Origin: Candidatus Thorarchaeota archaeon
GTDB taxonomy: Archaea; Asgardarchaeota; Thorarchaeia; Thorarchaeales; Thorarchaeaceae
Length of the DNA stretch: 11,452 bases
NCBI GenBank assembly: GCA_046758445.1
Contig: JBHIAE010000076.1
Span: 1 to 11,452 of the forward strand
Reading direction: 5' to 3'
A program made the position numbers and the translations under genes. This document shows, piece after piece, positions 1 to 11,452 of this stretch; the stretch's first letter is position 1, and the number at the start of each line of letters is the position of its first letter. Under the pieces are notes generated by a model, which saw only the letters and a list, made by a program, of their open reading frames with translations, did not search any database and was not told the origin of the DNA.

Positions 1-2402
1 CCTCCTACCGACCCTACAATCACGCCTGACGCCATGCCACTTGCACTCTCAGCAGTAAGGGTCTTGGCAATCTCCGCTCTGGTCATTCCGAAGGCCGAGA
101 GCATCCCAATCTCTCTTCTTCGTGTTGATGCAATCGACCAGCTACTGAGAAATGCACTGGCCATGGTGGCGATGAACAATGCCACCAGAGATGCATCGAC
201 AACCAGTTGAATCGAATTGAGGGCAGCTAGGTAATCTGCCTCCACGGCTGACACAAGGACAGGATGAGCACCAGAGAAGGACTCCAGCTCCACGATCGAA
301 GATTCTGCATCTGTCGACTCAATCAGCATGCCGCCCACGATGAAGGTCTCGCCTCGCACAACTTCCCACGTTTCGATTCCCACAATTGAGAAGATGGGAT
401 TCACAACGGTGACAACAAAGACAGGAACCGAAGAGCTGCATACTCCCACGACGCGAACGTCTACAGCGAAACCGATGTCGATGAAGTCGCCCACATGCGC
501 GTTCAACGTACGCGCGGCTTGCTCCGAGATGATGCAAGTATTTGGTTCCTCAATGGACGACACGCCAAGTGTTCTGTTCTCGAGCTCAATTAGGCCAAGT
601 GATGCCAGTCTCTCAAACCCGTCCGAATCTACGCCCATGATCAGTCCGAACTCTGCGCCTGATGGACTACTCATATCGTCTAGACCCTGATTCATAGGTA
701 CGACCATGGTCACATTCTCTATGCTCTCAATGTCCTGCACTATGTCGATCGGGGCAGGAGGATCCATATACATCACGATATTGGCCGCAGTTGCTTCGCC
801 ACCGATGTTAGCCTTCCAAGACTCCGTAATGGCTACTCCCACGTTCGTGGATGCAAAGAACAGCACCGTCACCGCTGCGAAGAGATTGAAGACAACCAGA
901 CCACTGAGGGTGTTCCGCCGAATGTTCCTACGGGACAAGAATCGCACAATCTTGGAGGACCTTGCAACTATCGGCTTCACGATTCTTGTAGAATGAGCAA
1001 GTCTTGGAGACAGGACAACGATGACCAAAAGGAAGGCAGGAATGGAAGCTATTCTCAAGAAGTCCTCAGATACAATGTGGAAACTGAATAAGTCAGAAAG
1101 AGTCTGGACGACCACGAGTGCTGCCAGTACTCCGGCTACGATGCTAATCACAATGTGTATCCGCTTTCTGGTCATGACTGACATTGACTGCCTTGCGCCT
1201 GAAACAGGCATTGAACCAGAACCCAGGCTAGTCGCAACTGATTCACGAGTAGCCCTCCAAGCTGGTATGTATCCTGCGACGATTGTGAGTGCAATTCCAA
1301 TCAAACCTGCACCGATGAGGCTCCATAGGTCGGTAACGTAGAGTGTGTCCAAGAACCGAGATGACGGCGAGATTGCAGATATATTGAGAACGAGTAAGAT
1401 GAAGTCAAGGACGACAGCACCCAGGACAATCCCAATTATCCCTCCGATGACAGCGCCAATGATTCCTATCGCTCCTACCTCAGCCAATAGGAGAGAGAGA
1501 ACAGTCTGCCTAGACGCTCCAAAGGCCAAAACAACGCCGGTTTCATGTCTGCGCTCTCCAAAGACCACTGCAAAGGCAGAGAACACTCTGAATGTCGCTA
1601 TGAAGCATGTGGCGAAGACCAGAGCCAAGAGAATCGTCCGTGCCTGTGAAAGGAAGAGTGTGGCTCGGTCCAGGGGGTATATCTTCAGGTTCGTGAGCAC
1701 GTAGTCATCACCGAACATGTACTGGATTCGGTCAGCAACCATTGGTGTTGAAAAGACATCATCGACTTCAACTAGGAGCTTGCCTACAGAATTGGACGGG
1801 TATCTAAGGTGATAGATCTCCCAAGCCTTCTCTATTGATACAAAGATTACCGGGCCCGCGAGACCTTTATCTACAGCCAGCCCAACACCAGTGACGTTCA
1901 GGAATTGAAGTCCGGCTGTTGTGTAGAGTTCTATTTCATCACCAACACTTACATTGAGCAGAAACTTTGCCTCTCGTGTGAGAAAGCAGCCATTTTCCGA
2001 CAGATCCAGTAAACCTTCTGAGACATCGAGATGACCTACGTGATCCTCCAGTTCAAGATCGAGCCCAACAATGAAGAGGTAGATTCTATCTATTCCATTC
2101 TCTACCCAGACATATTCTTCGATGCGGGGGATCGTGTTCGAAACACTGGGAATTGATTCCACATCAGATTGCATGTCAGTAGTTATGCGAACTCCCCACT
2201 TTCCGCCATTTGAAACGACAATATCGATAGGAGATAATGTGTCCTGGAGGAAGATTTTCGCGTTGTTCTGAAGGCTTGCACTAGCTGACATGGCGGTATA
2301 GAGTAGGCTGACTGAGATTGCGATTGAGATGATTGTGAACAGCGCCACGCGCCTTCGGCGGAACGCATTCCGAAAGCCCATGCCGGCAATCTCTAGACTC
2401 AA
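1..2402 (-). CDS. ABC transporter permease, MacB/FtsX family with duplicated (extracytoplasmic domain + FtsX) architecture; 3'-partial, about 800 aa visible
   Basis: Manual minus-strand translation: TTG at 2402 (GAGGT 4 nt upstream) or ATG at 2381 gives (MSLEIAG)MGFRNAFRRRRVALFTIISIAISVSLL..., the typical 'RN..RR..R + TM' start. First FtsX motif ERRHETGVVLAFGASRQTVLSLLLAEVGAIGIIG (~1555-1450) followed by YIPAWRATR. Second repeat starts RRNIRRNTLSGLVVF (~930). Second FtsX motif RRREIGMLSAFGMTRAEIAKTLTAES (~125-45). No stop seen before the window edge. Confidence 0.93.
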   Translation of the reverse strand, partial: MSLEIAGMGFRNAFRRRRVALFTIISIAISVSLLYTAMSASASLQNNAKIFLQDTLSPIDIVVSNGGKWGVRITTDMQSDVESIPSVSNTIPRIEEYVWVENGIDRIYLFIVGLDLELEDHVGHLDVSEGLLDLSENGCFLTREAKFLLNVSVGDEIELYTTAGLQFLNVTGVGLAVDKGLAGPVIFVSIEKAWEIYHLRYPSNSVGKLLVEVDDVFSTPMVADRIQYMFGDDYVLTNLKIYPLDRATLFLSQARTILLALVFATCFIATFRVFSAFAVVFGERRHETGVVLAFGASRQTVLSLLLAEVGAIGIIGAVIGGIIGIVLGAVVLDFILLVLNISAISPSSRFLDTLYVTDLWSLIGAGLIGIALTIVAGYIPAWRATRESVATSLGSGSMPVSGARQSMSVMTRKRIHIVISIVAGVLAALVVVQTLSDLFSFHIVSEDFLRIASIPAFLLVIVVLSPRLAHSTRIVKPIVARSSKIVRFLSRRNIRRNTLSGLVVFNLFAAVTVLFFASTNVGVAITESWKANIGGEATAANIVMYMDPPAPIDIVQDIESIENVTMVVPMNQGLDDMSSPSGAEFGLIMGVDSDGFERLASLGLIELENRTLGVSSIEEPNTCIISEQAARTLNAHVGDFIDIGFAVDVRVVGVCSSSVPVFVVTVVNPIFSIVGIETWEVVRGETFIVGGMLIESTDAESSIVELESFSGAHPVLVSAVEADYLAALNSIQLVVDASLVALFIATMASAFLSSWSIASTRRREIGMLSAFGMTRAEIAKTLTAESASGMASGVIVGSVG

Positions 2403-2472
2403 TCGGACCTCGACTCCAGCCCTTAGGAGGCAAAAGTGTGAACTACAAAGATGACTCCAACCATCCAAACGA

Positions 2473-2490
2473 GGTTAAAGCATTTTTCGG
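2473..2490 (-). promoter_or_regulatory. Putative archaeal BRE + TATA promoter of the ABC permease
   Basis: Minus strand reads CCGAAAAATG-CTTTAACC, a purine-rich BRE-like element directly followed by a TTTAA box, about 70 bp upstream of the TTG start. Confidence 0.45.
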
Positions 2491-2557
2491 ACAGCCTAGC
2501 GGGGATTCCGTGGCAATTCCCTTTGCCCCCACATCATCATGCTTGGACCATCTACTC

Positions 2558-2581
2558 AAAGAATAAATGGTGTAACGCCAT
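2558..2581 (+). promoter_or_regulatory. Possible promoter (AAAGAATAAAT) and adjoining imperfect inverted repeat ATGGTG-TAA-CGCCAT upstream of the DUF4139 operon
   Basis: AT-rich box about 35 bp before the probable TTG start at 2602; palindrome at 2567-2581. Confidence 0.3.
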
Positions 2582-2601
2582 CTGGTGGCCGGGAGAACAT
2601 C

Positions 2602-4191
2602 TTGACAGTCATGGATACTAGGATAGAAGACGTCACAGTCTTCAGGGATGGCGCCCGAGTGACCCGAAAGGGAAGGGTAACGCTTTCTCCTGGACCTCAC
2701 AAGGTCTTCATAACCGGAATCACAGACTCTGCTCAGGAAGACAGCTTCAGAGTGAAAGGGAAGGGCAAAGCGACTCTGTCAGCCATAGATGTAAGAAGAA
2801 GACAAGAAGTATTCGAGCCGGAAGAAGACTCGAAGCCATTGCATGATGAACTCAAGAACCTCGAACGTGAGAGAAAGAGGATCTCAGACGAGATAGAAAC
2901 ATACTCTCAAAGGCTTGGCAATCTCGAAGGCATGATTGTGGACTTTTCAGGGACATTTGGTATGCTTTATGCGGCAGATGAGGCAGACATAGAGCGGCTT
3001 AGTGAGATGGATGAAAAGAGTGGGAAACTTCGAGAAGATACGAAGAAGAAGCTGCGAGCCCTCGAAGAGAAACTGCAGAAGATTGATGACGAGATTCAGA
3101 TCGTGCGCAGCAGAATCGGCGCCTTAGCCTCCAAGAGGAGGATAGAAACCTTCTATGACCTAGAGATTAGCATTGAGACCCAGAAGGAGAGCAAGGTCGA
3201 GCTCGAAGTCACCTATCAGGCGGACGGGGCAGGTTGGAACCCATCATATGACCTTGACTTGCATCCCGCAAAGGCGAAGGTACGAAAAATCGCAATGATA
3301 GGCAACCACACAAGTGAGAGTTGGCATGAAGTCAATCTAACGGTGTCTACGGCAACGGCCAGACCAGTGGAGGCAGTGGAAGGCACTCCCTTCATCATCA
3401 GCGCTTATGATCCAGAGATGATGAAGAGGAAGAGAACGGAAAGGGCGGCGAGTATGCGCAGGGCGAAGATGGACAAACGGCCAGCCTCCAAATCTGTGGC
3501 CGCCCTTGCGGCTCCACCTCCTCCGGCACCTCCGCCTGAGATTGTGGAAGAGTTTGCGGAAGCCACAGAGGCAGCATCAGGGATATCCGTCTACGAATTG
3601 CCAAAGACTGTTACGATTCCTTTCGATGGCGACCGACACCCAGTCACTTTAATGGAAGAAGAGTTCGACTCGGATACCATCCACTATTGGTACGCAGATG
3701 GGATGGCAGAGGTCGTGGCACAGGACGAGATCACCAATGGGGACACTGTCCTGCTCCCGGGCAAAGCGAAGGTCTACGCCGAGGGCGACTACATCGGAGA
3801 ATCAAGCATTGCCTTCATCAGCCCAAGGGAGAAGTTCAAGCTTGGTACTCGTGTTGCTTACGATGTCAAGGCCTCCAAGAAGTTGATCGAACGTGAAGTA
3901 GAGAAGGCCGGCATTACGAGAGCCAAACTGAGGAGAGAATACAAGTACCAACTCAAGATTGAGAGCTTTTCCAAGCAACCTGTGAAAATGCAGGTATTTG
4001 ACAGGATCCCCCATAGCCTCACGACGTCGATAGAGGTAAAGACTGACTGGGAGAAGCTGAATGCGAAGAAGCATGAGCTTGGCGTGATAGAATGGCTACT
4101 CAACATTGAGCCCAAGCAGAAGAAGGAGATAGACTACGACTATGTAGTGGAGTGGGACCGAGACATTGTGATCAATCCCCCGCTCCCCTGA
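2602..4191 (+). CDS. DUF4140/DUF4139 domain protein (mucoidy inhibitor MuiA-like family), paralog 1
   Basis: N-terminal 'IEDVTVFRDGARVTR..DSFRV' (DUF4140-like), long heptad coiled coil, then 'LEVTY...AGWNPSYDL...IGNHTSESWHEVNLTVSTA.P' and C-terminal 'LLPGKAKVY..G.YIG..FKLG..DRIP.S....IEV..GVIEW' (DUF4139-like). Start moved from 2539 to TTG 2602 (GGGAGA 5 nt upstream; aligns with paralog 2 N-terminus); ATG 2611 is an alternative. Confidence 0.88.
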   Translation: MTVMDTRIEDVTVFRDGARVTRKGRVTLSPGPHKVFITGITDSAQEDSFRVKGKGKATLSAIDVRRRQEVFEPEEDSKPLHDELKNLERERKRISDEIETYSQRLGNLEGMIVDFSGTFGMLYAADEADIERLSEMDEKSGKLREDTKKKLRALEEKLQKIDDEIQIVRSRIGALASKRRIETFYDLEISIETQKESKVELEVTYQADGAGWNPSYDLDLHPAKAKVRKIAMIGNHTSESWHEVNLTVSTATARPVEAVEGTPFIISAYDPEMMKRKRTERAASMRRAKMDKRPASKSVAALAAPPPPAPPPEIVEEFAEATEAASGISVYELPKTVTIPFDGDRHPVTLMEEEFDSDTIHYWYADGMAEVVAQDEITNGDTVLLPGKAKVYAEGDYIGESSIAFISPREKFKLGTRVAYDVKASKKLIEREVEKAGITRAKLRREYKYQLKIESFSKQPVKMQVFDRIPHSLTTSIEVKTDWEKLNAKKHELGVIEWLLNIEPKQKKEIDYDYVVEWDRDIVINPPLP

Positions 4192-4198
4192 GGAGGTG
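4192..4198 (+). promoter_or_regulatory. Ribosome-binding site GGAGGTG for paralog 2
   Basis: Strong Shine-Dalgarno directly after the paralog 1 TGA and 5 nt before ATG 4204, consistent with co-transcription and translational coupling. Confidence 0.8.
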
Positions 4199-4203
4199 CT
4201 GAG

Positions 4204-5799
4204 ATGGGAAAGAAGATTGAAACAGAGATAACTGATGTGACGGTATTCCGTGATGGTGCAAGAGTAGTCCGTTCTGGGAAGAAGCAACTTGTCCCTGGCG
4301 AACACGTCCTCGAAGTCGGGGGCATCTCCAACCTTGCCCAGAGTGACAGCTTCAGGGTGAAAGGAAGAGGAGCAGCTGTTCTGAAGGGGATTGACGTCAA
4401 AAGCAAGACTGAAACCTTCGAGCCCGAGGGTGACATCGCCTCGCTTAGGGAGAAGCTGCTCGGATTTGAGAGAGAACGCAAGCGAATCTCTGATAGCATC
4501 GAACATCAAGAGTCACGGTTTCGATATTTCACCTCCATAACTGAGCAATTCTCAGCAGAGTTTGGCAAATGGTACGCTGCCGGGGAGTCAACTCTAGAGA
4601 ATCTGGACAAAATGGACAAAGCGTCAATCAAGCAACTCAATGACGTTAGGAAGAAGCTGAGGGTCTTGAGAGAGGAGCTGGATGAGATTGATGTCAAGAT
4701 CCAGGTAGTTCAAGCGAATATCAACAGGGTTCAAGGTCAGCGGAGAACTGTGACCAGCAAGGAAGTCCGAGTTACACTTGACGTGAAAGAGAACTCACTC
4801 ATTGATCTCGAGGTCACGTACCAGCTTGGGGGTGCAGGTTGGTCTCCCACCTACGATGTGGACATCGGGGATGACAAGTCCGGAGTCAAAAGGACAGCAA
4901 TGGTATACAACCGAACTCTGGAAAACTGGAATGACGTAGGATTGACTGTATCAACCGCATCTTCCAGGAGAGCGGCAGCCGTCGAAGCGACACCCTTCTA
5001 TGTAGATGCTCTATCGCCCATGGCTGGCTACGGAGGGCGCATTGATGATATCGAAGCGACAGTCTCAGAAACAGGAGAGTACTATGCCGAGGACGAGACC
5101 GTGGACTACCTGAAAGAAGAAGAGATTGTTTACGAGCTCGAACCAGAGATTGAAGAAACTCTTGCCACTGCAACGGAAACCTTGAGCGGCACGATGACCT
5201 ACGAGGTTCCTGGAAGAGTTTCAATTCCGACAGGCGATGAACCGCAGCCCATAACGTTGACCGAAGAAGCATTCGACTCCAAACGACTCTATTACTGGAA
5301 TGCTTACGCTATGCCGGAGGTTGTCGCACAGGACGAGATTACCAACGCCGACTCAGTGATGCTTCCTGGCAACGTCAGGGTGTACGCTGAGGGCGATTTT
5401 CTGGGAGAAACAAGAGTCGGTTTCATAGCCCCCAGAGAAACCTTCAGACTCGGGACAAGGACGGCCTATGACGTTAAGGCAGAGAAAAAGCTAGCCGTAA
5501 AAGACATCGAGAAGGCAGGCTTCACTCGAGGAAGACGAAGAAGGGGCTACGAATATCGACTTGAGATCAAGAGTTTTTCCAAGAAGCCCATAGAGATGCG
5601 AATAGTCGACCGAATCCCACATAGCAACTCCGAGAAGATACAGGTTGAGCTCAAACCTATGCGTATTGCTCCTAAGAAGAGTGAGCTAGGTGTGCTGGAG
5701 TGGGAGATAACGGTTGACGCGGAGCAGGAGCTTGAAATCGGGTATGCATTCGAGGTTGAATGGGAAAAGGATGTCCATATCCAACCACCCCTTCCTTGA
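4204..5799 (+). CDS. DUF4140/DUF4139 domain protein (MuiA-like family), paralog 2
   Basis: 531 aa ORF co-linear with paralog 1 (DVTVFRDGARV, DSFRVKG, LEVTYQ..GAGW.P.YD.D, EVVAQDEITN.D.V.LPG, DRIPHS, terminal PPLP). Confidence 0.9.
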   Translation: MGKKIETEITDVTVFRDGARVVRSGKKQLVPGEHVLEVGGISNLAQSDSFRVKGRGAAVLKGIDVKSKTETFEPEGDIASLREKLLGFERERKRISDSIEHQESRFRYFTSITEQFSAEFGKWYAAGESTLENLDKMDKASIKQLNDVRKKLRVLREELDEIDVKIQVVQANINRVQGQRRTVTSKEVRVTLDVKENSLIDLEVTYQLGGAGWSPTYDVDIGDDKSGVKRTAMVYNRTLENWNDVGLTVSTASSRRAAAVEATPFYVDALSPMAGYGGRIDDIEATVSETGEYYAEDETVDYLKEEEIVYELEPEIEETLATATETLSGTMTYEVPGRVSIPTGDEPQPITLTEEAFDSKRLYYWNAYAMPEVVAQDEITNADSVMLPGNVRVYAEGDFLGETRVGFIAPRETFRLGTRTAYDVKAEKKLAVKDIEKAGFTRGRRRRGYEYRLEIKSFSKKPIEMRIVDRIPHSNSEKIQVELKPMRIAPKKSELGVLEWEITVDAEQELEIGYAFEVEWEKDVHIQPPLP

Positions 5800-5801
5800 G
5801 T

Positions 5802-5847
5802 CCCAATGACTTACGCAAGTCGGGGCCCAACAACGTGTAAAGAGAAG
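5802..5847. terminator. Possible terminator region between convergent genes
   Basis: Hairpin GACTT-ACGC-AAGTC (5808-5821) flanked by CCC/GGG; pyrimidine tract CTTCTCTTT on the minus strand immediately after the M20 stop, typical of archaeal terminators. Confidence 0.35.
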
Positions 5848-7197
5848 CTACCAGTGACCCATCTCATGCATAACCAGTGCGATCCGCTTCGTGCCTTTCT
5901 GGAAGTTGTCCAGCTTTATACTTTCATTAGGAGAGTGGCCTCTTGATTTCACATCACCTACTCCTATCGACACCATTGGCACATGGTCTTTGAACAGGTA
6001 CAGAGGCCCAGAGCCTGCAGTAGTTGGGTGTATGCGAAGATCTCCGAACACCCTCGCGTTTGCTCTCTTCACGACATCCACGAACGGATGATCCACCGGA
6101 GTCTTAGCCGCAGGGTAGCCTTCGTACCAAGCAATCTTGACATCAGCAAAGCCCTGGCTGTTAAAGTGCTTGCGCAGCTTCTGCAAGATGTCTTCAGGAT
6201 CCATATTCTCTACGAGCCTGAACTCTATCTTAGCTGATGCTTTTCCTGGGAGAACTGTCATTGACCCCTCTCCCTGATAGCCACTCGTAAGACCACAGAT
6301 GGAGTTGCTAGGAGCTCCATAGACGATCTCCTTAAGGTCTCGTCCGGAAAGACCATTGAGAAACTCCGATATTCCGTATTCTCTCTTCATGTCTTCCTCA
6401 TGTAGGTCTATCTTGTCAATCGCTTTCCACTCTGTGTCTGATAGCGGTTTTACCCCATCATAGAACCCATCGATGAGAATCCGATGGTTTGAGTCCTTCA
6501 ATGAGTTCAATGCTGCGACAAGCTTGAGGGGTGCTGACGGGAGATATCCACCAGCACTCGAATGGACATTGCGAGTGAGACTCTCCACCTCCAGCTGGAC
6601 ATAGAGTATTCCCTTCAGCCCGAGCCATGCCTGTTGGACGCCATCGTAGCCTTCCCCGCCGAACTCCCATATCCCACCTTCTGCACTCATAAACTCCTTG
6701 TGATTGCTGGTGAATTCTGGTAGGTGAACGCTTCCAATCTCCTCCTCGCCTTCAACTACGAACTTGATGTTCACTGGAATCTCGGTTCCGGTTTCTAAGA
6801 AAGCTCTGACTGCCGAAATTCGAGAAACAAGATCCCCCTTGTTATCAGATACCCCCCTTCCGTAGAGGCGTCCATCGCGTGACTCTGGCTCAAAAGGAAG
6901 GCTGTCCCACAACTCCAAAGGCTCAGCGGGCTGCACATCGTAGTGATTATAGAACATGAGAGTCTTGGAAGCTCCTACGTCAAGGTGTCCAGTCACGACT
7001 GGCGCGCCTGATGTATTATGAAGCTCAGTTTCGATGCCAATCGCTTCAAGCATTTCTAGAAGCATCCCTGAGCACTCCTCTATCCCCTCGTTCTTAGCCG
7101 CAATGGAGGGGATGCTTGCGATTCTCTTCAAGTCATCTAGGGCGCGTTCAGCATTCTTGTCGAGATAACTCGTGACTTCCTCAATCATCCGAATCAA
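5848..7197 (-). CDS. M20/M25/M40 family metallopeptidase (ArgE/DapE-like dipeptidase)
   Basis: Motifs YNHYDVQP, LYGRGVSDNKG, VEGEEEIGS, GLKGI, VHSS, TVLPGKA, HSPNESI provide the metal ligands and catalytic Glu. Start is TTG 7197 or ATG 7188. Confidence 0.93.
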   Translation of the reverse strand: MIRMIEEVTSYLDKNAERALDDLKRIASIPSIAAKNEGIEECSGMLLEMLEAIGIETELHNTSGAPVVTGHLDVGASKTLMFYNHYDVQPAEPLELWDSLPFEPESRDGRLYGRGVSDNKGDLVSRISAVRAFLETGTEIPVNIKFVVEGEEEIGSVHLPEFTSNHKEFMSAEGGIWEFGGEGYDGVQQAWLGLKGILYVQLEVESLTRNVHSSAGGYLPSAPLKLVAALNSLKDSNHRILIDGFYDGVKPLSDTEWKAIDKIDLHEEDMKREYGISEFLNGLSGRDLKEIVYGAPSNSICGLTSGYQGEGSMTVLPGKASAKIEFRLVENMDPEDILQKLRKHFNSQGFADVKIAWYEGYPAAKTPVDHPFVDVVKRANARVFGDLRIHPTTAGSGPLYLFKDHVPMVSIGVGDVKSRGHSPNESIKLDNFQKGTKRIALVMHEMGHW

Positions 7198-7221
7198 CTT
7201 ATTGGGGCTAGCTCATCCCAA

Positions 7222-7264
7222 TGATATATACTCTCATCACTTGTGGCATACGCAACAAATATAG
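7222..7264. promoter_or_regulatory. Divergent TATA-like boxes for the M20 peptidase (ATATATAC ~7224-7231) and gap (AAATATAG ~7257-7264)
   Basis: AT-rich boxes in the 118 bp divergent intergenic region at archaeal-type spacing; gap also has an AGGTG RBS at 7304-7308. Confidence 0.45.
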
Positions 7265-7315
7265 CGGAGCATCGAGCCGTCCTCGCCGAAGGACAACCAT
7301 AGCAGGTGTATTGTC

Positions 7316-8323
7316 ATGACTGTTCGTGTTGGTATCAACGGTTTCGGAAGAATTGGCCGCGGCTTTCTGAGGGCGGCAATGTCAAAGAAGGAGTTCGAGG
7401 TTGTTGGACTGAACGACCTTATGGATGTCAAGACCATTGCTCATTTGATGAAGTACGACACCGTGATGGGCAGATTCGAAGGAAGCGTCGAGGCAGGCAA
7501 GGACTACATGAAGGTCAATGGCGAGGATCTCAAGGTGGTATCGGAACGAGATCCTGCAAACCTTCCATGGAAGGACCTTGGTGTGGACATAGCTGTTGAG
7601 TGCACAGGTCTGTTCAGAAAGCGTGACGATGCAGCTAAGCACTTCACCGCGGGAGCCAAGAAGGTTGTCTTGAGCGCACCAGGGAAAGGAGGAGAGATGC
7701 TCACTGTTGTGCCTGGTGTGAATGATGGTGACTATGACCCGACAAAGCATGACATCATCTCAAATGCATCCTGCACCACAAACTGCCTTGCACCAATGGT
7801 GAAGGTCATTGACGAGAGCTTTGGCATAGAGAGAGGCCTAATGACGACAGTTCACGCTGTTACAAATGATCAAGTCATGCTTGATGGCCCGCACAAGGAT
7901 CTCCGAAGAGCACGCGCAGCGTGTTGGAACATAATCCCAACAACCACCGGAGCAGCAAAAGCAATTGGACTGGTGTATCCAAAGGCTGCTGGTAAGCTTG
8001 ATGGCATGGCGTTAAGGGTGCCGGTCATGGATGTGTCAATTGTCGATCTGAATGTGGTCGTTGAGAACAAAACTGATGTTGACGGAGTCAACGCAGCTTT
8101 CAAGAAAGCCTCAGAAACCGGGCCTTTGGCAGACTACTTGGCTTACCTAGACGTGCCCCTTGTGTCATCCGACTTCATTGGAGACCCGCATTCGTGTAGC
8201 TACGACTCACTAACGACTACGGTAATCGGGAACATGGTGAAGGCACTAGGATTCTATGACAACGAGATGGGCTACAGTCACCGGTTAGCCGACCTAGCCG
8301 GTATAGTCGCAACCAGCATGTAG
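7316..8323 (+). CDS. gap: Glyceraldehyde-3-phosphate dehydrogenase, type I (bacterial/eukaryotic class), probably NAD-dependent
   Basis: VGINGFGRIGR Rossmann motif, NDL, GAKKVVLSAP, catalytic SNASCTTNCLAP, TTVHA, DGPHKDLRRARAA, NIIPTTTGAAKA, GMALRVP, YDNE.GYS.R. Confidence 0.97.
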   Translation: MTVRVGINGFGRIGRGFLRAAMSKKEFEVVGLNDLMDVKTIAHLMKYDTVMGRFEGSVEAGKDYMKVNGEDLKVVSERDPANLPWKDLGVDIAVECTGLFRKRDDAAKHFTAGAKKVVLSAPGKGGEMLTVVPGVNDGDYDPTKHDIISNASCTTNCLAPMVKVIDESFGIERGLMTTVHAVTNDQVMLDGPHKDLRRARAACWNIIPTTTGAAKAIGLVYPKAAGKLDGMALRVPVMDVSIVDLNVVVENKTDVDGVNAAFKKASETGPLADYLAYLDVPLVSSDFIGDPHSCSYDSLTTTVIGNMVKALGFYDNEMGYSHRLADLAGIVATSM

Positions 8324-8364
8324 GGTCCAACGACTGGAGAAGCCCCCTACTGAGGCGAGAGTCC

Positions 8365-9408
8365 GTGGAACCAATCAGCAGGATTGATACCGAGCAGGGT
8401 AAACTCTACTTCAGGGGACATGATGCCACCCAAATAGCCAGGTTTCATAGCTATGAAGATGTCACGCATCTCCTTGTCCATGGGCACCTTCCAACTCCAG
8501 ATGAGAGCAAGCAGTTCATGAAGAGAATGATTGAACTCCGCAACATTGGAGAGCAGGATATCGACTCGATCCTATCTGAGTTCGGAAGCATTCAGGGTTC
8601 GTTCACGCTTGATTCTCCAGAGGTGCTAGTTTCAATCGGGCTCAAACGTTTCATTGAGAAACTAGACTTCTACAAAGACGACCACGGACTAAGCGCGATG
8701 GACACGGCGTTGCTCTTCGTGTCAATGGCTCCTGTAGTTGTTGCTGCCGAATGGCGCAAGATCCATGGGAAGATTCCAATCACATCAAGGAATACACTCG
8801 GTCATTCAACGAATTTCCTTTGGATGCTCAACGAAACCACTCTGGACGATTTGGCAGCTCGAGAACTTGAAACCAGTATGATACTTCACATGGATGATCC
8901 AGACAATCCTTCTCTCTCTGCCCTGGAGAGTACCTATCGTTCAACCGACTCGGTTTCCAAAGCGACTCTCGCAGCTCTAGACAAGCATGTCAGTACACTT
9001 CACCACGGGGCTGGAACAGAGGCTATGAGAATGATCAAGGAGATTGGCGGACATCCCCAAGTATCGAATCTTCTGGAATACAGACTCGGACGTGGGGAGA
9101 AGATCTTCGGACTCGGGCATAGAATCTATCGAAGTATGGATCCTCGAGCAAAGGTTCTTAGAGAGATTCTGAAGAGGAGAGGAGAAGAAGATACTCGTTG
9201 GGCCAAGCGACTCTCCGACATTGACGAGATTGCCGAGGTGGGTAGCGGATTGATTCTGGAGAAGAAAGGCAAGGCTGTTCATCCAAATGTGGACCTATAC
9301 AACGCTGCAGTGTATGAATCATTTGGAATCAGCTATCTGCTGAATACCGACCTATTTGCCATCGCACGTTCAGCCGGTTGGGCGGCGCACATTCTTGAGT
9401 TGCAATAG
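8365..9408 (+). CDS. Citrate synthase / methylcitrate synthase-fold protein, divergent
   Basis: ISRID..QGKLYFRGHD N-terminus, KIFGLGHRIYRSMDPRAK (GFGHRVY..DPRA), HPNVDLY, LFAIARSAGWAAHILE; GTG start with GAGG 9 nt upstream. Non-canonical LHMDDPDNPS and LHHGAG motifs. Confidence 0.85.
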   Translation: MEPISRIDTEQGKLYFRGHDATQIARFHSYEDVTHLLVHGHLPTPDESKQFMKRMIELRNIGEQDIDSILSEFGSIQGSFTLDSPEVLVSIGLKRFIEKLDFYKDDHGLSAMDTALLFVSMAPVVVAAEWRKIHGKIPITSRNTLGHSTNFLWMLNETTLDDLAARELETSMILHMDDPDNPSLSALESTYRSTDSVSKATLAALDKHVSTLHHGAGTEAMRMIKEIGGHPQVSNLLEYRLGRGEKIFGLGHRIYRSMDPRAKVLREILKRRGEEDTRWAKRLSDIDEIAEVGSGLILEKKGKAVHPNVDLYNAAVYESFGISYLLNTDLFAIARSAGWAAHILELQ

Positions 9409-9417
9409 AGGCCAGGA

Positions 9418-9873
9418 CTAGATTCTCTTGGTCAAGCTTGCAGCTGTTGGGCAAAGAGTGGTGAACTCGATTGACTGTCTAACGGATGCAGGGACATCTT
9501 CCCGGTCAACAGATTCAAACCCAATCTTCCGAAAGAACTCTTCGGCTGTGTCTGTGAGCAGGTATAATTGACCTATCCCTTTGACTCTCGCTCTTTCTAT
9601 GATACTGCTCACCAGTTGTTTTCCAATTCCTCTCCCTTGAAAATCCGGATGTACAGCGAGTGATCGGAGAAGGGCGTATTTGTCGTAGATTTCCAAGCCC
9701 ACACATCCAATCAGGATCTCCGGCCCTGCCACAACATGAGGACTTCGAATGATAAGAAAGTCATCTACGTGTGGCTCAATTCCATCTGGTGGAAGGTCCG
9801 TGTCCTGTAGAAATACAACGATTCCTGGAAGGTCCTTCTTGCTTGCACCTTCAATTGGAAACCGTTCGTTCAT
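9418..9873 (-). CDS. GNAT N-acetyltransferase, ArsN2-like
   Basis: IGCVGLEIY...ALLRSLAV.P..QGRGIGKQLV acetyl-CoA motif, LYLLT.TAEEFF...GF, and C-terminal VP..VRQS.EF..LCP.AA characteristic of ArsN2-type proteins. Confidence 0.85.
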   Translation of the reverse strand: MNERFPIEGASKKDLPGIVVFLQDTDLPPDGIEPHVDDFLIIRSPHVVAGPEILIGCVGLEIYDKYALLRSLAVHPDFQGRGIGKQLVSSIIERARVKGIGQLYLLTDTAEEFFRKIGFESVDREDVPASVRQSIEFTTLCPTAASLTKRI

Positions 9874-9894
9874 GGTTATTCAGTTTCCTATTGT

Positions 9895-9902
9895 CTTTAT
9901 AA
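9895..9902 (-). promoter_or_regulatory. TATA box (TTATAAAG) of the GNAT gene; probably a leaderless transcript
   Basis: Box lies 22-29 bp upstream of ATG 9873 and no RBS is visible, which matches archaeal leaderless promoter geometry. Confidence 0.55.
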
Positions 9903-9963
9903 TGTAAATGGCCAAGGCCAGAAAGATGCACCCCTTCCATCGGCTCTACTATCCCCTCAGATT

Positions 9964-9971
9964 CTTTATAG
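9964..9971 (+). promoter_or_regulatory. TATA box (CTTTATAG) of the 2-TM Zn-ribbon gene
   Basis: About 31-38 bp upstream of GTG 10002 / TTG 10005. Confidence 0.5.
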
Positions 9972-10001
9972 GGTGATTCGGAAACTTGAACACAGTGAGC
10001 T

Positions 10002-10439
10002 GTGTTGAGCCAGAATGTTGGACTGAAGATAGCTGGCATCATGTGCCTGGTGTTTGCGTTTCCTATTATCCTGGTAGTGATATTCCTGCAAGCTCTGGGC
10101 ATAGGAGAGTATGTGTTTCCGATCCTAGTACCTATCATTATAGGACTTGGTGCAACCTTCTGTTTGATCGGACTCGTCTTCGCATTTGCGGCCAGAGCTG
10201 AAAGACAGAAGGGAGTCGATTTGGACAGAGCAGTCCGTGCAGGTTACGAAGCACAGATGTTCGCAGCTGGCGATTACACAAGAGTCTACAGGCCAGGTGC
10301 GACCTTCTCCATTCCGGTCTATTGCCCTCATTGTCAGTCAGGCATTGAACTGGACAGAGTACATTGGAGTGGCCCACAGACGCTTGTGTGCCAAGAGTGC
10401 CTCAACTCAGTAGATGTAACTCTCTCTGAAGAGATCTAG
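10002..10439 (+). CDS. Hypothetical membrane protein: two N-terminal TM helices and a C-terminal Zn-ribbon (CPHC...CQEC)
   Basis: Hydrophobic segments IAGIMCLVFAFPIILVVIFLQAL and VFPILVPIIIGLGATFCLIGLVFAFAA, then IPVYCPHCQSGIELDRVHWSGPQTLVCQEC. Fills the gap between genes and has its own TATA box. Start is GTG 10002 or TTG 10005. Confidence 0.82.
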   Translation: MLSQNVGLKIAGIMCLVFAFPIILVVIFLQALGIGEYVFPILVPIIIGLGATFCLIGLVFAFAARAERQKGVDLDRAVRAGYEAQMFAAGDYTRVYRPGATFSIPVYCPHCQSGIELDRVHWSGPQTLVCQECLNSVDVTLSEEI

Positions 10440-11348
10440 TCACACAGGAGATAGGCCCCAGTCTGTAGTAGCTTGGATGGCAAGCTCCTTCTCGACTCTG
10501 CTCAGCGGGTGAATCGGAGGCCGACAGTTTCCCCCTGACAGCCCAATATAGTCCAGCATCACCTTGATAACTGGCACATTATTCGCCGTTCCTCTCCCTT
10601 CTCTCAAGTATTCGAGAGGACTGATCAATTCCTGGAGCTTCATGGCCTCTGCGTAGTCCTCTCGTCTAAGTGCACCAAGCATCGAAAGTGATACTTTAGG
10701 TGCGAAGTTACCAAGTCCAGACGTAAAGCCGGATGCTCCGGCCAGCCAGAAGAACGGGGCGAATCTCTCTGCTGTGCCGCACGACCAGACGATTGACTTG
10801 TCCATCCTCTGCACTGTCCGCGCGAAGTCAACGATGCGTCCAAATGCATACTTTACACCAACCAGACTCTCGTGACCAATGATACTCTCCAAGACATTGT
10901 CACTCAGCAAGGGGCCTTTCTTGTATAGAACTACACCCATTTCGCCGCTTGAATCGAGTATCGTCCGGAGATAGTTGAGCAGACCCTCTTCAGAGCTGAA
11001 AACGTGTTGGGGATACATCACCATCACACCTTCTGCACCAAGCTCCTCGGCTTGACGGATCATGGTTGTAGCGGTTGTCGTCGAATGACCAACTCCGGGC
11101 ATGACAACCATTTTGCCGTCCGCTGTTTCAACAGTTGCCTCCAGCACCTGCCTCCATTCTGTTTCAGACAGGGAGTAGAACTCACCTGTATTACCGCACG
11201 GTACGACCATCTTTATGCCTTCCCGAACCAGGTATTCCAGATTGGTCGACACGGCCGAGGTGTCAACGGAAGAGAGATCTTTCGTGAACGGCGTGGTTGT
11301 AGTTACAGACACCCCTTGGAGGGCATCGAACAGTCGATTATGTTTCAT
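10440..11348 (-). CDS. Dihydrodipicolinate synthase (DapA)-family class I aldolase/dehydratase, closer to the 5-dehydro-4-deoxyglucarate dehydratase-like branch
   Basis: TTPF..D..VD, PCGNTGEFYSLS..E, PGVG, catalytic Tyr (VVLYKK), Schiff-base Lys (LVGVKYA), GTAERFA...GASGFTSGLGNFAP, CRPPI.PL. Confidence 0.9.
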   Translation of the reverse strand: MKHNRLFDALQGVSVTTTTPFTKDLSSVDTSAVSTNLEYLVREGIKMVVPCGNTGEFYSLSETEWRQVLEATVETADGKMVVMPGVGHSTTTATTMIRQAEELGAEGVMVMYPQHVFSSEEGLLNYLRTILDSSGEMGVVLYKKGPLLSDNVLESIIGHESLVGVKYAFGRIVDFARTVQRMDKSIVWSCGTAERFAPFFWLAGASGFTSGLGNFAPKVSLSMLGALRREDYAEAMKLQELISPLEYLREGRGTANNVPVIKVMLDYIGLSGGNCRPPIHPLSRVEKELAIQATTDWGLSPV

Positions 11349-11397
11349 GATTCAGGCGACCTGTGACACTGAGTGTGAATCTTTGCCGCCAGCACTA

Positions 11398-11408
11398 GTT
11401 CATATATC
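11398..11408 (-). promoter_or_regulatory. Possible TATA-like box (GATATATGAAC) upstream of the DapA-family gene
   Basis: Most TATA-like sequence in the upstream region, about 50-60 bp before ATG 11348. Confidence 0.3.
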
Positions 11409-11452
11409 CGCCGATTCCGTATGGGATGAAACCATTGCTAACCGGAACCCAA

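Follow-up and report, generated by a model that had tools for sequence, protein, structure and literature searches.

How do two adjacent, related genes come to carry loops of opposite charge at the same position of their products, and what might such loops do? This question is raised by contig JBHIAE010000076.1 of a Candidatus Thorarchaeota archaeon (GenBank assembly GCA_046758445.1), which we analyzed from position 1 to 11,452 of the forward strand; this whole stretch of 11,452 nucleotides is called the window. The two genes, designated A and B, lie in tandem and specify members of the "mucoidy inhibitor MuiA family" (TIGR02231, combining DUF4140 and DUF4139). Across the corresponding pairs of related Thorarchaeota, the loop charges of A and B covary in a compensatory manner, and this covariation holds after phylogenetic correction. 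The features concerned are the following, with positions given as those of the window.

2611..4191, + strand: gene A (P0004, 526 amino acids (aa)), encoding DUF4140, a coiled-coil hairpin and DUF4139, with a basic, Pro-rich loop
3400..3534, + strand: loop of A, residues 264-308 (45 aa), with a net charge of +7 and 8 Pro, from loop extraction and charge counts
3412..3462, + strand: basic segment of the loop of A, residues 268-284, assigned as helix by DSSP in the AlphaFold2 (AF2) model at predicted local distance difference test (pLDDT) values of about 69-82; hydrophilic, not amphipathic
3463..3513, + strand: core of the loop of A, residues 285-301, with an AF2 pLDDT below 50, the lowest confidence, and presumably disordered; the polyproline run comes after it
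4192..4203, + strand: spacer of 12 nucleotides (nt) between A and B, with a Shine-Dalgarno-like GGAGGTG at 4192-4198, as read in the sequence
4204..5799, + strand: gene B (P0002, 531 aa), with the same architecture as gene A and an acidic, Tyr-containing loop
5005..5142, + strand: loop of B, residues 268-313 (46 aa), with a net charge of −13 and 5 Tyr, a Gly-rich start and an acidic second half

The loop of A extends from a conserved flank ending in a TPFII motif to a conserved acidic flank that begins with PEIVEEF. An initial annotation of this DNA had described charge-complementary segments at this site, and a recount from the translations agreed with it in detail. Positions 3418-3540 specify the basic stretch of A followed by a Pro run (11 K/R and 2 D/E in the first 25 aa), and positions 5041-5148 specify the acidic stretch of B (15 D/E, 1 K and 4 Y in 36 aa). 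Both segments lie between the shared flanks that the annotation quoted, and the two paralogs share 47% identity over 527 aa. Conservation between the two proteins is lowest in the loop, where A and B agree at only 4 of 44 residues. No segment other than the loop (+3.5 versus −6.0) shows a large charge difference between the two types, and no more than 6 type-specific positions were found outside the loop. Considered in a single protein, the enrichment is marginal and by itself not significant: shuffling at constant composition yielded an equally rich segment in 7% of cases for A and in 5% for B. It is the position, sign and conservation of the charges that make the case.

Among the 48 genomes of the Thorarchaeota family to which the window belongs (GTDB family f1), 44 carry the tandem pair, representing 16 genera; other Asgard families mostly have one copy. 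Thirty complete pairs were extracted. The mean loop charges were +5.1 for the upstream and −7.1 for the downstream copies in the first set of relatives sampled, and averaging the means of the 16 genera gave about +3.9 and −4.6, respectively. At the genus level, the loop charges of A and B were strongly anticorrelated (r = −0.84 for the 16 genus means), the variance of their sum was 7-fold smaller than that of their difference (9.8 versus 71.6), and the mean sum was −0.8. Loops of opposite sign were observed in 14 of 16 genera, compared to 35% of random pairs of single-copy loops, only 2% of which differed by at least 10 charges. When Felsenstein's independent contrasts were calculated on a tree of concatenated A and B sequences that was built without the loop, the anticorrelation was retained (r = −0.63, 27 contrasts, p = 4e-4), with 17 contrasts of opposite and 6 of the same sign. 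In addition, the loop was positive in 119 of 120 A-type metagenomic homologues (mean +4.5). Random loop charge among orthologues, the outcome that the initial annotation had named as fatal to its proposal, is thus not what was observed. The composition of the loops differs as well, Pro accounting for 19.5% of residues in A loops and 8% in B loops, and Tyr for 2.3% and 4.4%. Judging by the latter values, the Tyr richness is modest outside the genus of the window.

To place these loops in the context of the family, we made use of an exhaustive phmmer search, which returned 7,642 representative proteins (50% clustering) at E-values of at most 1e-3, and derived linker statistics from 125 full-length distant representatives, each at most 37% identical to A. 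A segment was present at the loop site in all 125, with a length of 44±7 aa, 13% Pro and a composition rich in Ala and Met. The word "insert", which the initial annotation had used for this segment, is therefore wrong, since it is a linker found at this site in every family member. Its net charge in the distant representatives is close to neutral (−0.8±2.8), and its halves differ: the first averages +2.0 and the second −2.8, a positive first and negative second half being combined in 81 of 125 proteins and the reverse in 6. The linker is thus a family-wide and typically bipolar element, whose first half is basic and rich in Pro and whose second half is acidic. A net charge of at least +5 was reached by only 4 of the 125 linkers and one of −7 or lower by a single linker, so that the loops of the window, at +7 and −13, are outliers in both directions. 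Likewise, the family as a whole shares the Pro run in which the loop ends. No inserted Pfam domains were found in three long bacterial loops.

In trees calculated without the loop columns, the Thorarchaeota pair nests among single-copy Asgard genes, and all upstream copies form one clade with a support of 99. In G025, G035 and G046, the single-copy Asgard outgroups, the loop is bipolar (+3 followed by −7 to −9), and the comparison shows both the ancestral bipolarity and its partition between A and B. The upstream clade includes the copies of three genomes (G019, G094 and G043) that make up the two earliest-branching lineages, G043 forming one and G019 with G094 the other, in which an acidic or neutral loop belongs to the upstream copy and a basic, Pro-rich one to the downstream copy. 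In these two basal lineages the polarity is reversed yet complementary. Most simply, the duplication of a gene with a bipolar loop would have been followed by a split of that loop, A having retained the basic, Pro-rich part and B the acidic part.

Several features of the pair bear on a possible joint function of A and B. The TGA stop codon of A directly precedes the GGAGGTG motif and the ATG of B follows 12 nt past the stop, which suggests coupled translation of the two genes; the corresponding spacers in related contigs measure 11-26 nt. AF2 models of A and B, for which an alignment of 136 sequences served as input, had mean pLDDT values of 92.8 and 92.5 and show a beta domain at the N terminus, followed by a long antiparallel coiled-coil hairpin and a large all-beta C-terminal region that is broken by the loop. 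Both loops are low-confidence regions inside otherwise high-confidence models. In B, residues 251-321 are all modelled as coil, with pLDDT values below 50 at 287-304. We also considered an amphipathic membrane-binding helix in the basic arm and rejected it, since in 10 orthologues the hydrophobic moment did not exceed that of shuffled sequences and the mean hydrophobicity was strongly negative. The binding of anionic lipid that the initial annotation had entertained is, as far as it would take place through such a helix, not supported.

The reading that we favour, although tentatively and as a possibility rather than a probability, is that A and B belong as subunits to a single cytoplasmic complex in which the disordered arms pair with or neutralise each other electrostatically. 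The two proteins would be co-translated as subunits of a MuiA/DUF4139-family assembly, with the linker as a disordered segment of conserved length within the C-terminal beta domain. In single-copy relatives this linker would be a polyampholyte, basic and Pro-rich in its first half, acidic in its second and about neutral as a whole. After a tandem duplication of the gene at the base of the Thorarchaeota family, the halves would have been shared out, in most lineages with the basic helix and polyproline going to A and the acidic part to B, and in the two basal lineages the opposite way. The arms would then neutralise each other, most simply by contacting each other directly in a 'fuzzy' electrostatic pairing, which would give A:B association an advantage over A:A or B:B. 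We infer the physical association and the arm-to-arm contact from comparative evidence, which makes the pairing interpretation plausible. The idea of A:B pairing is the part of the initial annotation that fits the comparative data, namely the tight conserved operon, the anticorrelated charges, the swapped yet complementary polarity and the bipolar loop of single-copy relatives; the term insert and the bait or cleavage segment are the parts that did not stand.

A number of observations weigh against this reading. Some genera display little or no effect (loop charges of A and B of 0/0 in g26, +1/−1 in g27 and about +1.5/0 in g2), the sampled genera are few and related, and the swapped lineages being basal branches, the polarity switch may have been a single event. 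In genus g34, which belongs to another Asgard family (loci L052-L054 of genomes G048, G097 and G113), the gene was duplicated in tandem independently, and both loops have remained bipolar with a moderate difference in net charge (+2 to +4 versus −4 to 0), the first half of the upstream loop being much more basic than that of the downstream loop (+10 versus +4). Both protein bodies are net acidic outside the loop (−15 and −9) and both N-terminal domains are basic, so that each arm could dock on its own chain or on the body of its partner. Literature and PDB searches yielded no oligomeric state for any family member.

The acidity of the bodies, and of the flank following the loop in both types (−5.2 and −2.4), also fits an explanation that we consider rather unlikely, in which the arms have separate targets. 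The basic and polyproline arm of A would bind an anionic or Pro-recognising partner (nucleic acid, an acidic protein surface, or an SH3- or profilin-like module) or dock on the acidic body, the acidic and Tyr-containing arm of B would serve as a mimic, autoinhibitor or spacer, and selection for a certain net charge of a common assembly or ligand would account for the constancy of the sum. In agreement with this, the model of A places a helix of intermediate pLDDT in the basic part, as if it were packed against something, and the Pro run, by its presence throughout the family, may be a motif of its own. The anticorrelation and the swapped but complementary polarity are, however, not predicted by such targets alone; membrane insertion is unlikely for a segment that is not amphipathic, and neither a nucleic-acid-binding domain (by Pfam) nor a gene context pointing to one was found in the window or related contigs. 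A further explanation, which we hold to be improbable, is that the linker, being of low complexity, relaxed neutrally once duplicated and drifted in composition in each copy; the apparent complementarity would then go back to one or two ancient events that many genera inherited. The poor conservation of the loop, its marginal enrichment in single sequences, the nearly neutral loops of several genera and the possibly single basal swap would all be expected from drift. Against this, loops throughout the family keep to a length of about 45 aa, A-type loops are positive with one exception in 120, the charges vary far less in sum than in difference, opposite contrasts outnumber those of the same sign, and charges as large as those of the window are rare among the 125 single-type loops. 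An alternative offered by the initial annotation, that the loops serve as bait or cleavage segments and differ in protease specificity, is in our view highly improbable; a neighbouring M20 peptidase might be linked to such a role. The loops are indeed long, exposed and of low model confidence, and in the window, as in three related contigs, the peptidase gene follows the pair in convergent orientation. However, A and B contain no cysteine, no thioester (CGEQ) motif and no Pfam match to alpha-2-macroglobulin (MG/A2M) domains, cleavage would leave the charge compensation unexplained, and M20 enzymes are known as exopeptidases or deacylases, not as endoproteases.

Compensating charges in a conserved, co-translated pair provide a concrete and cheaply examined hypothesis, namely that the pair forms a heteromeric unit with the linker as its functional, evolvable arm. 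If this is true, the locus would illustrate, in a clean natural case, how an ancestral polyampholyte loop can be divided between duplicates to enforce their hetero-association, and it would offer a first handle, in an Asgard lineage, on the biochemistry of the very large DUF4139/MuiA family. The family appears to be known only through domains of unknown function, and the literature searched contained nothing on compensating loops. Full-text searches turned up no functional work on DUF4139, DUF4140 or TIGR02231 and nothing on family structure, pairing or loops; sequence and profile searches of the PDB matched no solved structure, returning coiled-coil noise only, and an atlas search returned DUF4139 clusters only. 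Members occur in bacteria and archaea, and papers also name eukaryotic ones. One paper places PF13598 among histidine-kinase Pfams, apparently by a slip.

Partial precedents exist for the individual parts of this picture. Oppositely charged disordered proteins are known to form high-affinity complexes, for example histone H1 with prothymosin-alpha, in which the two chains bind without folding; the Thorarchaeota arms may be comparable. Duplication-degeneration-complementation is an established model for the partition of functions between duplicates. The history proposed here would resemble it in that a bipolar ancestral element was split between two copies, and would differ in that the split took place within one protein loop and not among regulatory elements. 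The alpha and beta subunits of prefoldin (archaeal GimC) are likewise paralogous coiled-coil-hairpin subunits of a hetero-oligomer, but the beta domains of A and B are far larger, and hairpin matches at the Z-scores obtained are generic for long helices. The namesake of the family, MuiA of Pseudomonas aeruginosa, is described in genetic terms only, as an envelope-stress-induced (SbrI-dependent) inhibitor of alginate production (PMC10418997). The Thorarchaeota proteins match the MuiA family over their full length above curated cut-offs, share its domain order and have a variable linker at the same site. They differ from MuiA in lacking an N-terminal hydrophobic signal, in forming a charge-partitioned tandem pair and in being archaeal and cytoplasmic, with no alginate system in view.

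Foldseek searches with the beta region of both models matched the mu-homology domains of AP2 mu2 and delta-COP with probabilities of 0.90-0.98 and E-values of about 1e-3 over some 210 columns, but the template modelling (TM) scores normalized by target were only 0.25-0.28, compared to the value above 0.5 that we took as the fold-level criterion for a mu-homology domain, and the root-mean-square deviations were 9-10 Å. In view of this poor superposition and of the mostly bacterial distribution of the family, the similarity is a lead only. It is very doubtful, in our estimation from the models, that the DUF4139 beta region is a prokaryotic relative of the mu-homology domain and that A and B would form a cytoplasmic adaptor scaffold of coiled coil and mu-homology-like domain, whose arms carry short linear motifs for partner recruitment. 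By analogy, A and B would recall the layout of the muniscins, in which a coiled-coil dimer is followed by a Pro-rich disordered linker and a muHD, and such a relationship, if true, would be intriguing in an Asgard genome. A profile scan of the C-terminal halves reported DUF4139 alone, even at E-values up to 10; weak matches are dropped by the hmmscan filters. VIA-align searches, both wide and as a re-ranking of the Foldseek hits, gave matches to the coiled-coil hairpin only (model residues 65-179) and are uninformative on the beta domains. The C-terminal beta regions (3139-4188 in A and 4738-5796 in B) also gave weak, repeatable Foldseek matches to Ost1/ribophorin I.

Tandem duplications are not confined to the Asgard archaea. 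A scan of species-representative genomes with a degenerate DNA pattern gave 120 bacterial loci, at 27 of which two or more DUF4139 genes lie in tandem. An ancient bacterial pair (L072-L191; for example L083, L089, L097, L109, L141 and L183) was found in Streptomyces, Kitasatospora, Embleya, Myxococcota, cyanobacteria and 'Deltaproteobacteria'. Its upstream loop comprises 150-250 aa, is Pro-rich and opens with a conserved GRxQPxP...SGWRxPP motif, while its downstream loop has 27-32 aa with alternating charges; long-loop and short-loop copies form two separate clades that are sisters. Like the Thorarchaeota pair, it consists of adjacent paralogs that differ chiefly at the same loop site. Unlike it, the bacterial pair stems from an older, independent duplication, and its loops differ in length and motif and not by charge partition. 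In total, the tree indicates four independent tandem duplications in the family, in each of which the paralogs differ most at this site, and the linker is thus a recurrent point where tandem paralogs of the family differentiate. A local triplication was seen in a Myxococcota metagenome-assembled genome (L168), where three tandem DUF4139 genes on the minus strand have loops of 56 aa (net −14, rich in Tyr, Asp and Glu and ending in a Pro run), 40 aa (net +1, bipolar with +6 followed by −5) and 14 aa (net 0, Gly-rich). A second, very divergent tandem DUF4139 pair, with loop charges of +7 and −1, occurs on a short contig in a Thorarchaeota bin (L063; G147:C200:1-3300). The translated open reading frames (ORFs) of this contig are seemingly rich in Arg, Pro and Thr, and it is probably a contaminant from another organism.

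A and B are members of the family by its curated profiles. TIGR02231 (NCBIfam) scored 250.2 bits on A (model positions 1-521 of 524) and 243.7 bits on B (positions 1-523 of 524), compared to a curated cut-off of 112.6 bits. Both proteins have an N-terminal DUF4140 (PF13600) and a C-terminal DUF4139 (PF13598), all above the Pfam gathering score, with E-values and scores of 2e-25 and 89.5 bits (DUF4140) and 3e-34 and 118.9 bits (DUF4139) for A, and of 2e-18 and 67.1 bits and 2e-35 and 123.1 bits for B. The two genes are the only family members in the 3.25-Mb genome, and neither protein has an N-terminal hydrophobic segment. Upstream of the pair, an FtsX/MacB-type permease gene (3-2468, minus strand) is not kept in related contigs. 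The convergent M20/M25/M40 peptidase gene just downstream (5848-7197, minus strand) retains its arrangement in the three related Thorarchaeota contigs mentioned above and is the sole gene travelling with the pair; neither the window nor the related contigs gave a functional hint from the neighbourhood. On the coding strand of the pair, the window contains the ORFs 2539-4191 (A, open from an ATG at 2539) and 4204-5799 (B). The database gene call for A, of 526 aa, begins at the ATG at 2611, homologues begin there too, and a TATA-like AATAAAT is located at 2562-2568, within the longer ORF. On these grounds the 24-codon N-terminal extension (2539-2610) is probably untranslated, and the ATG at 2611 is the likely start of A, a choice that the position of the AATAAAT box fits.

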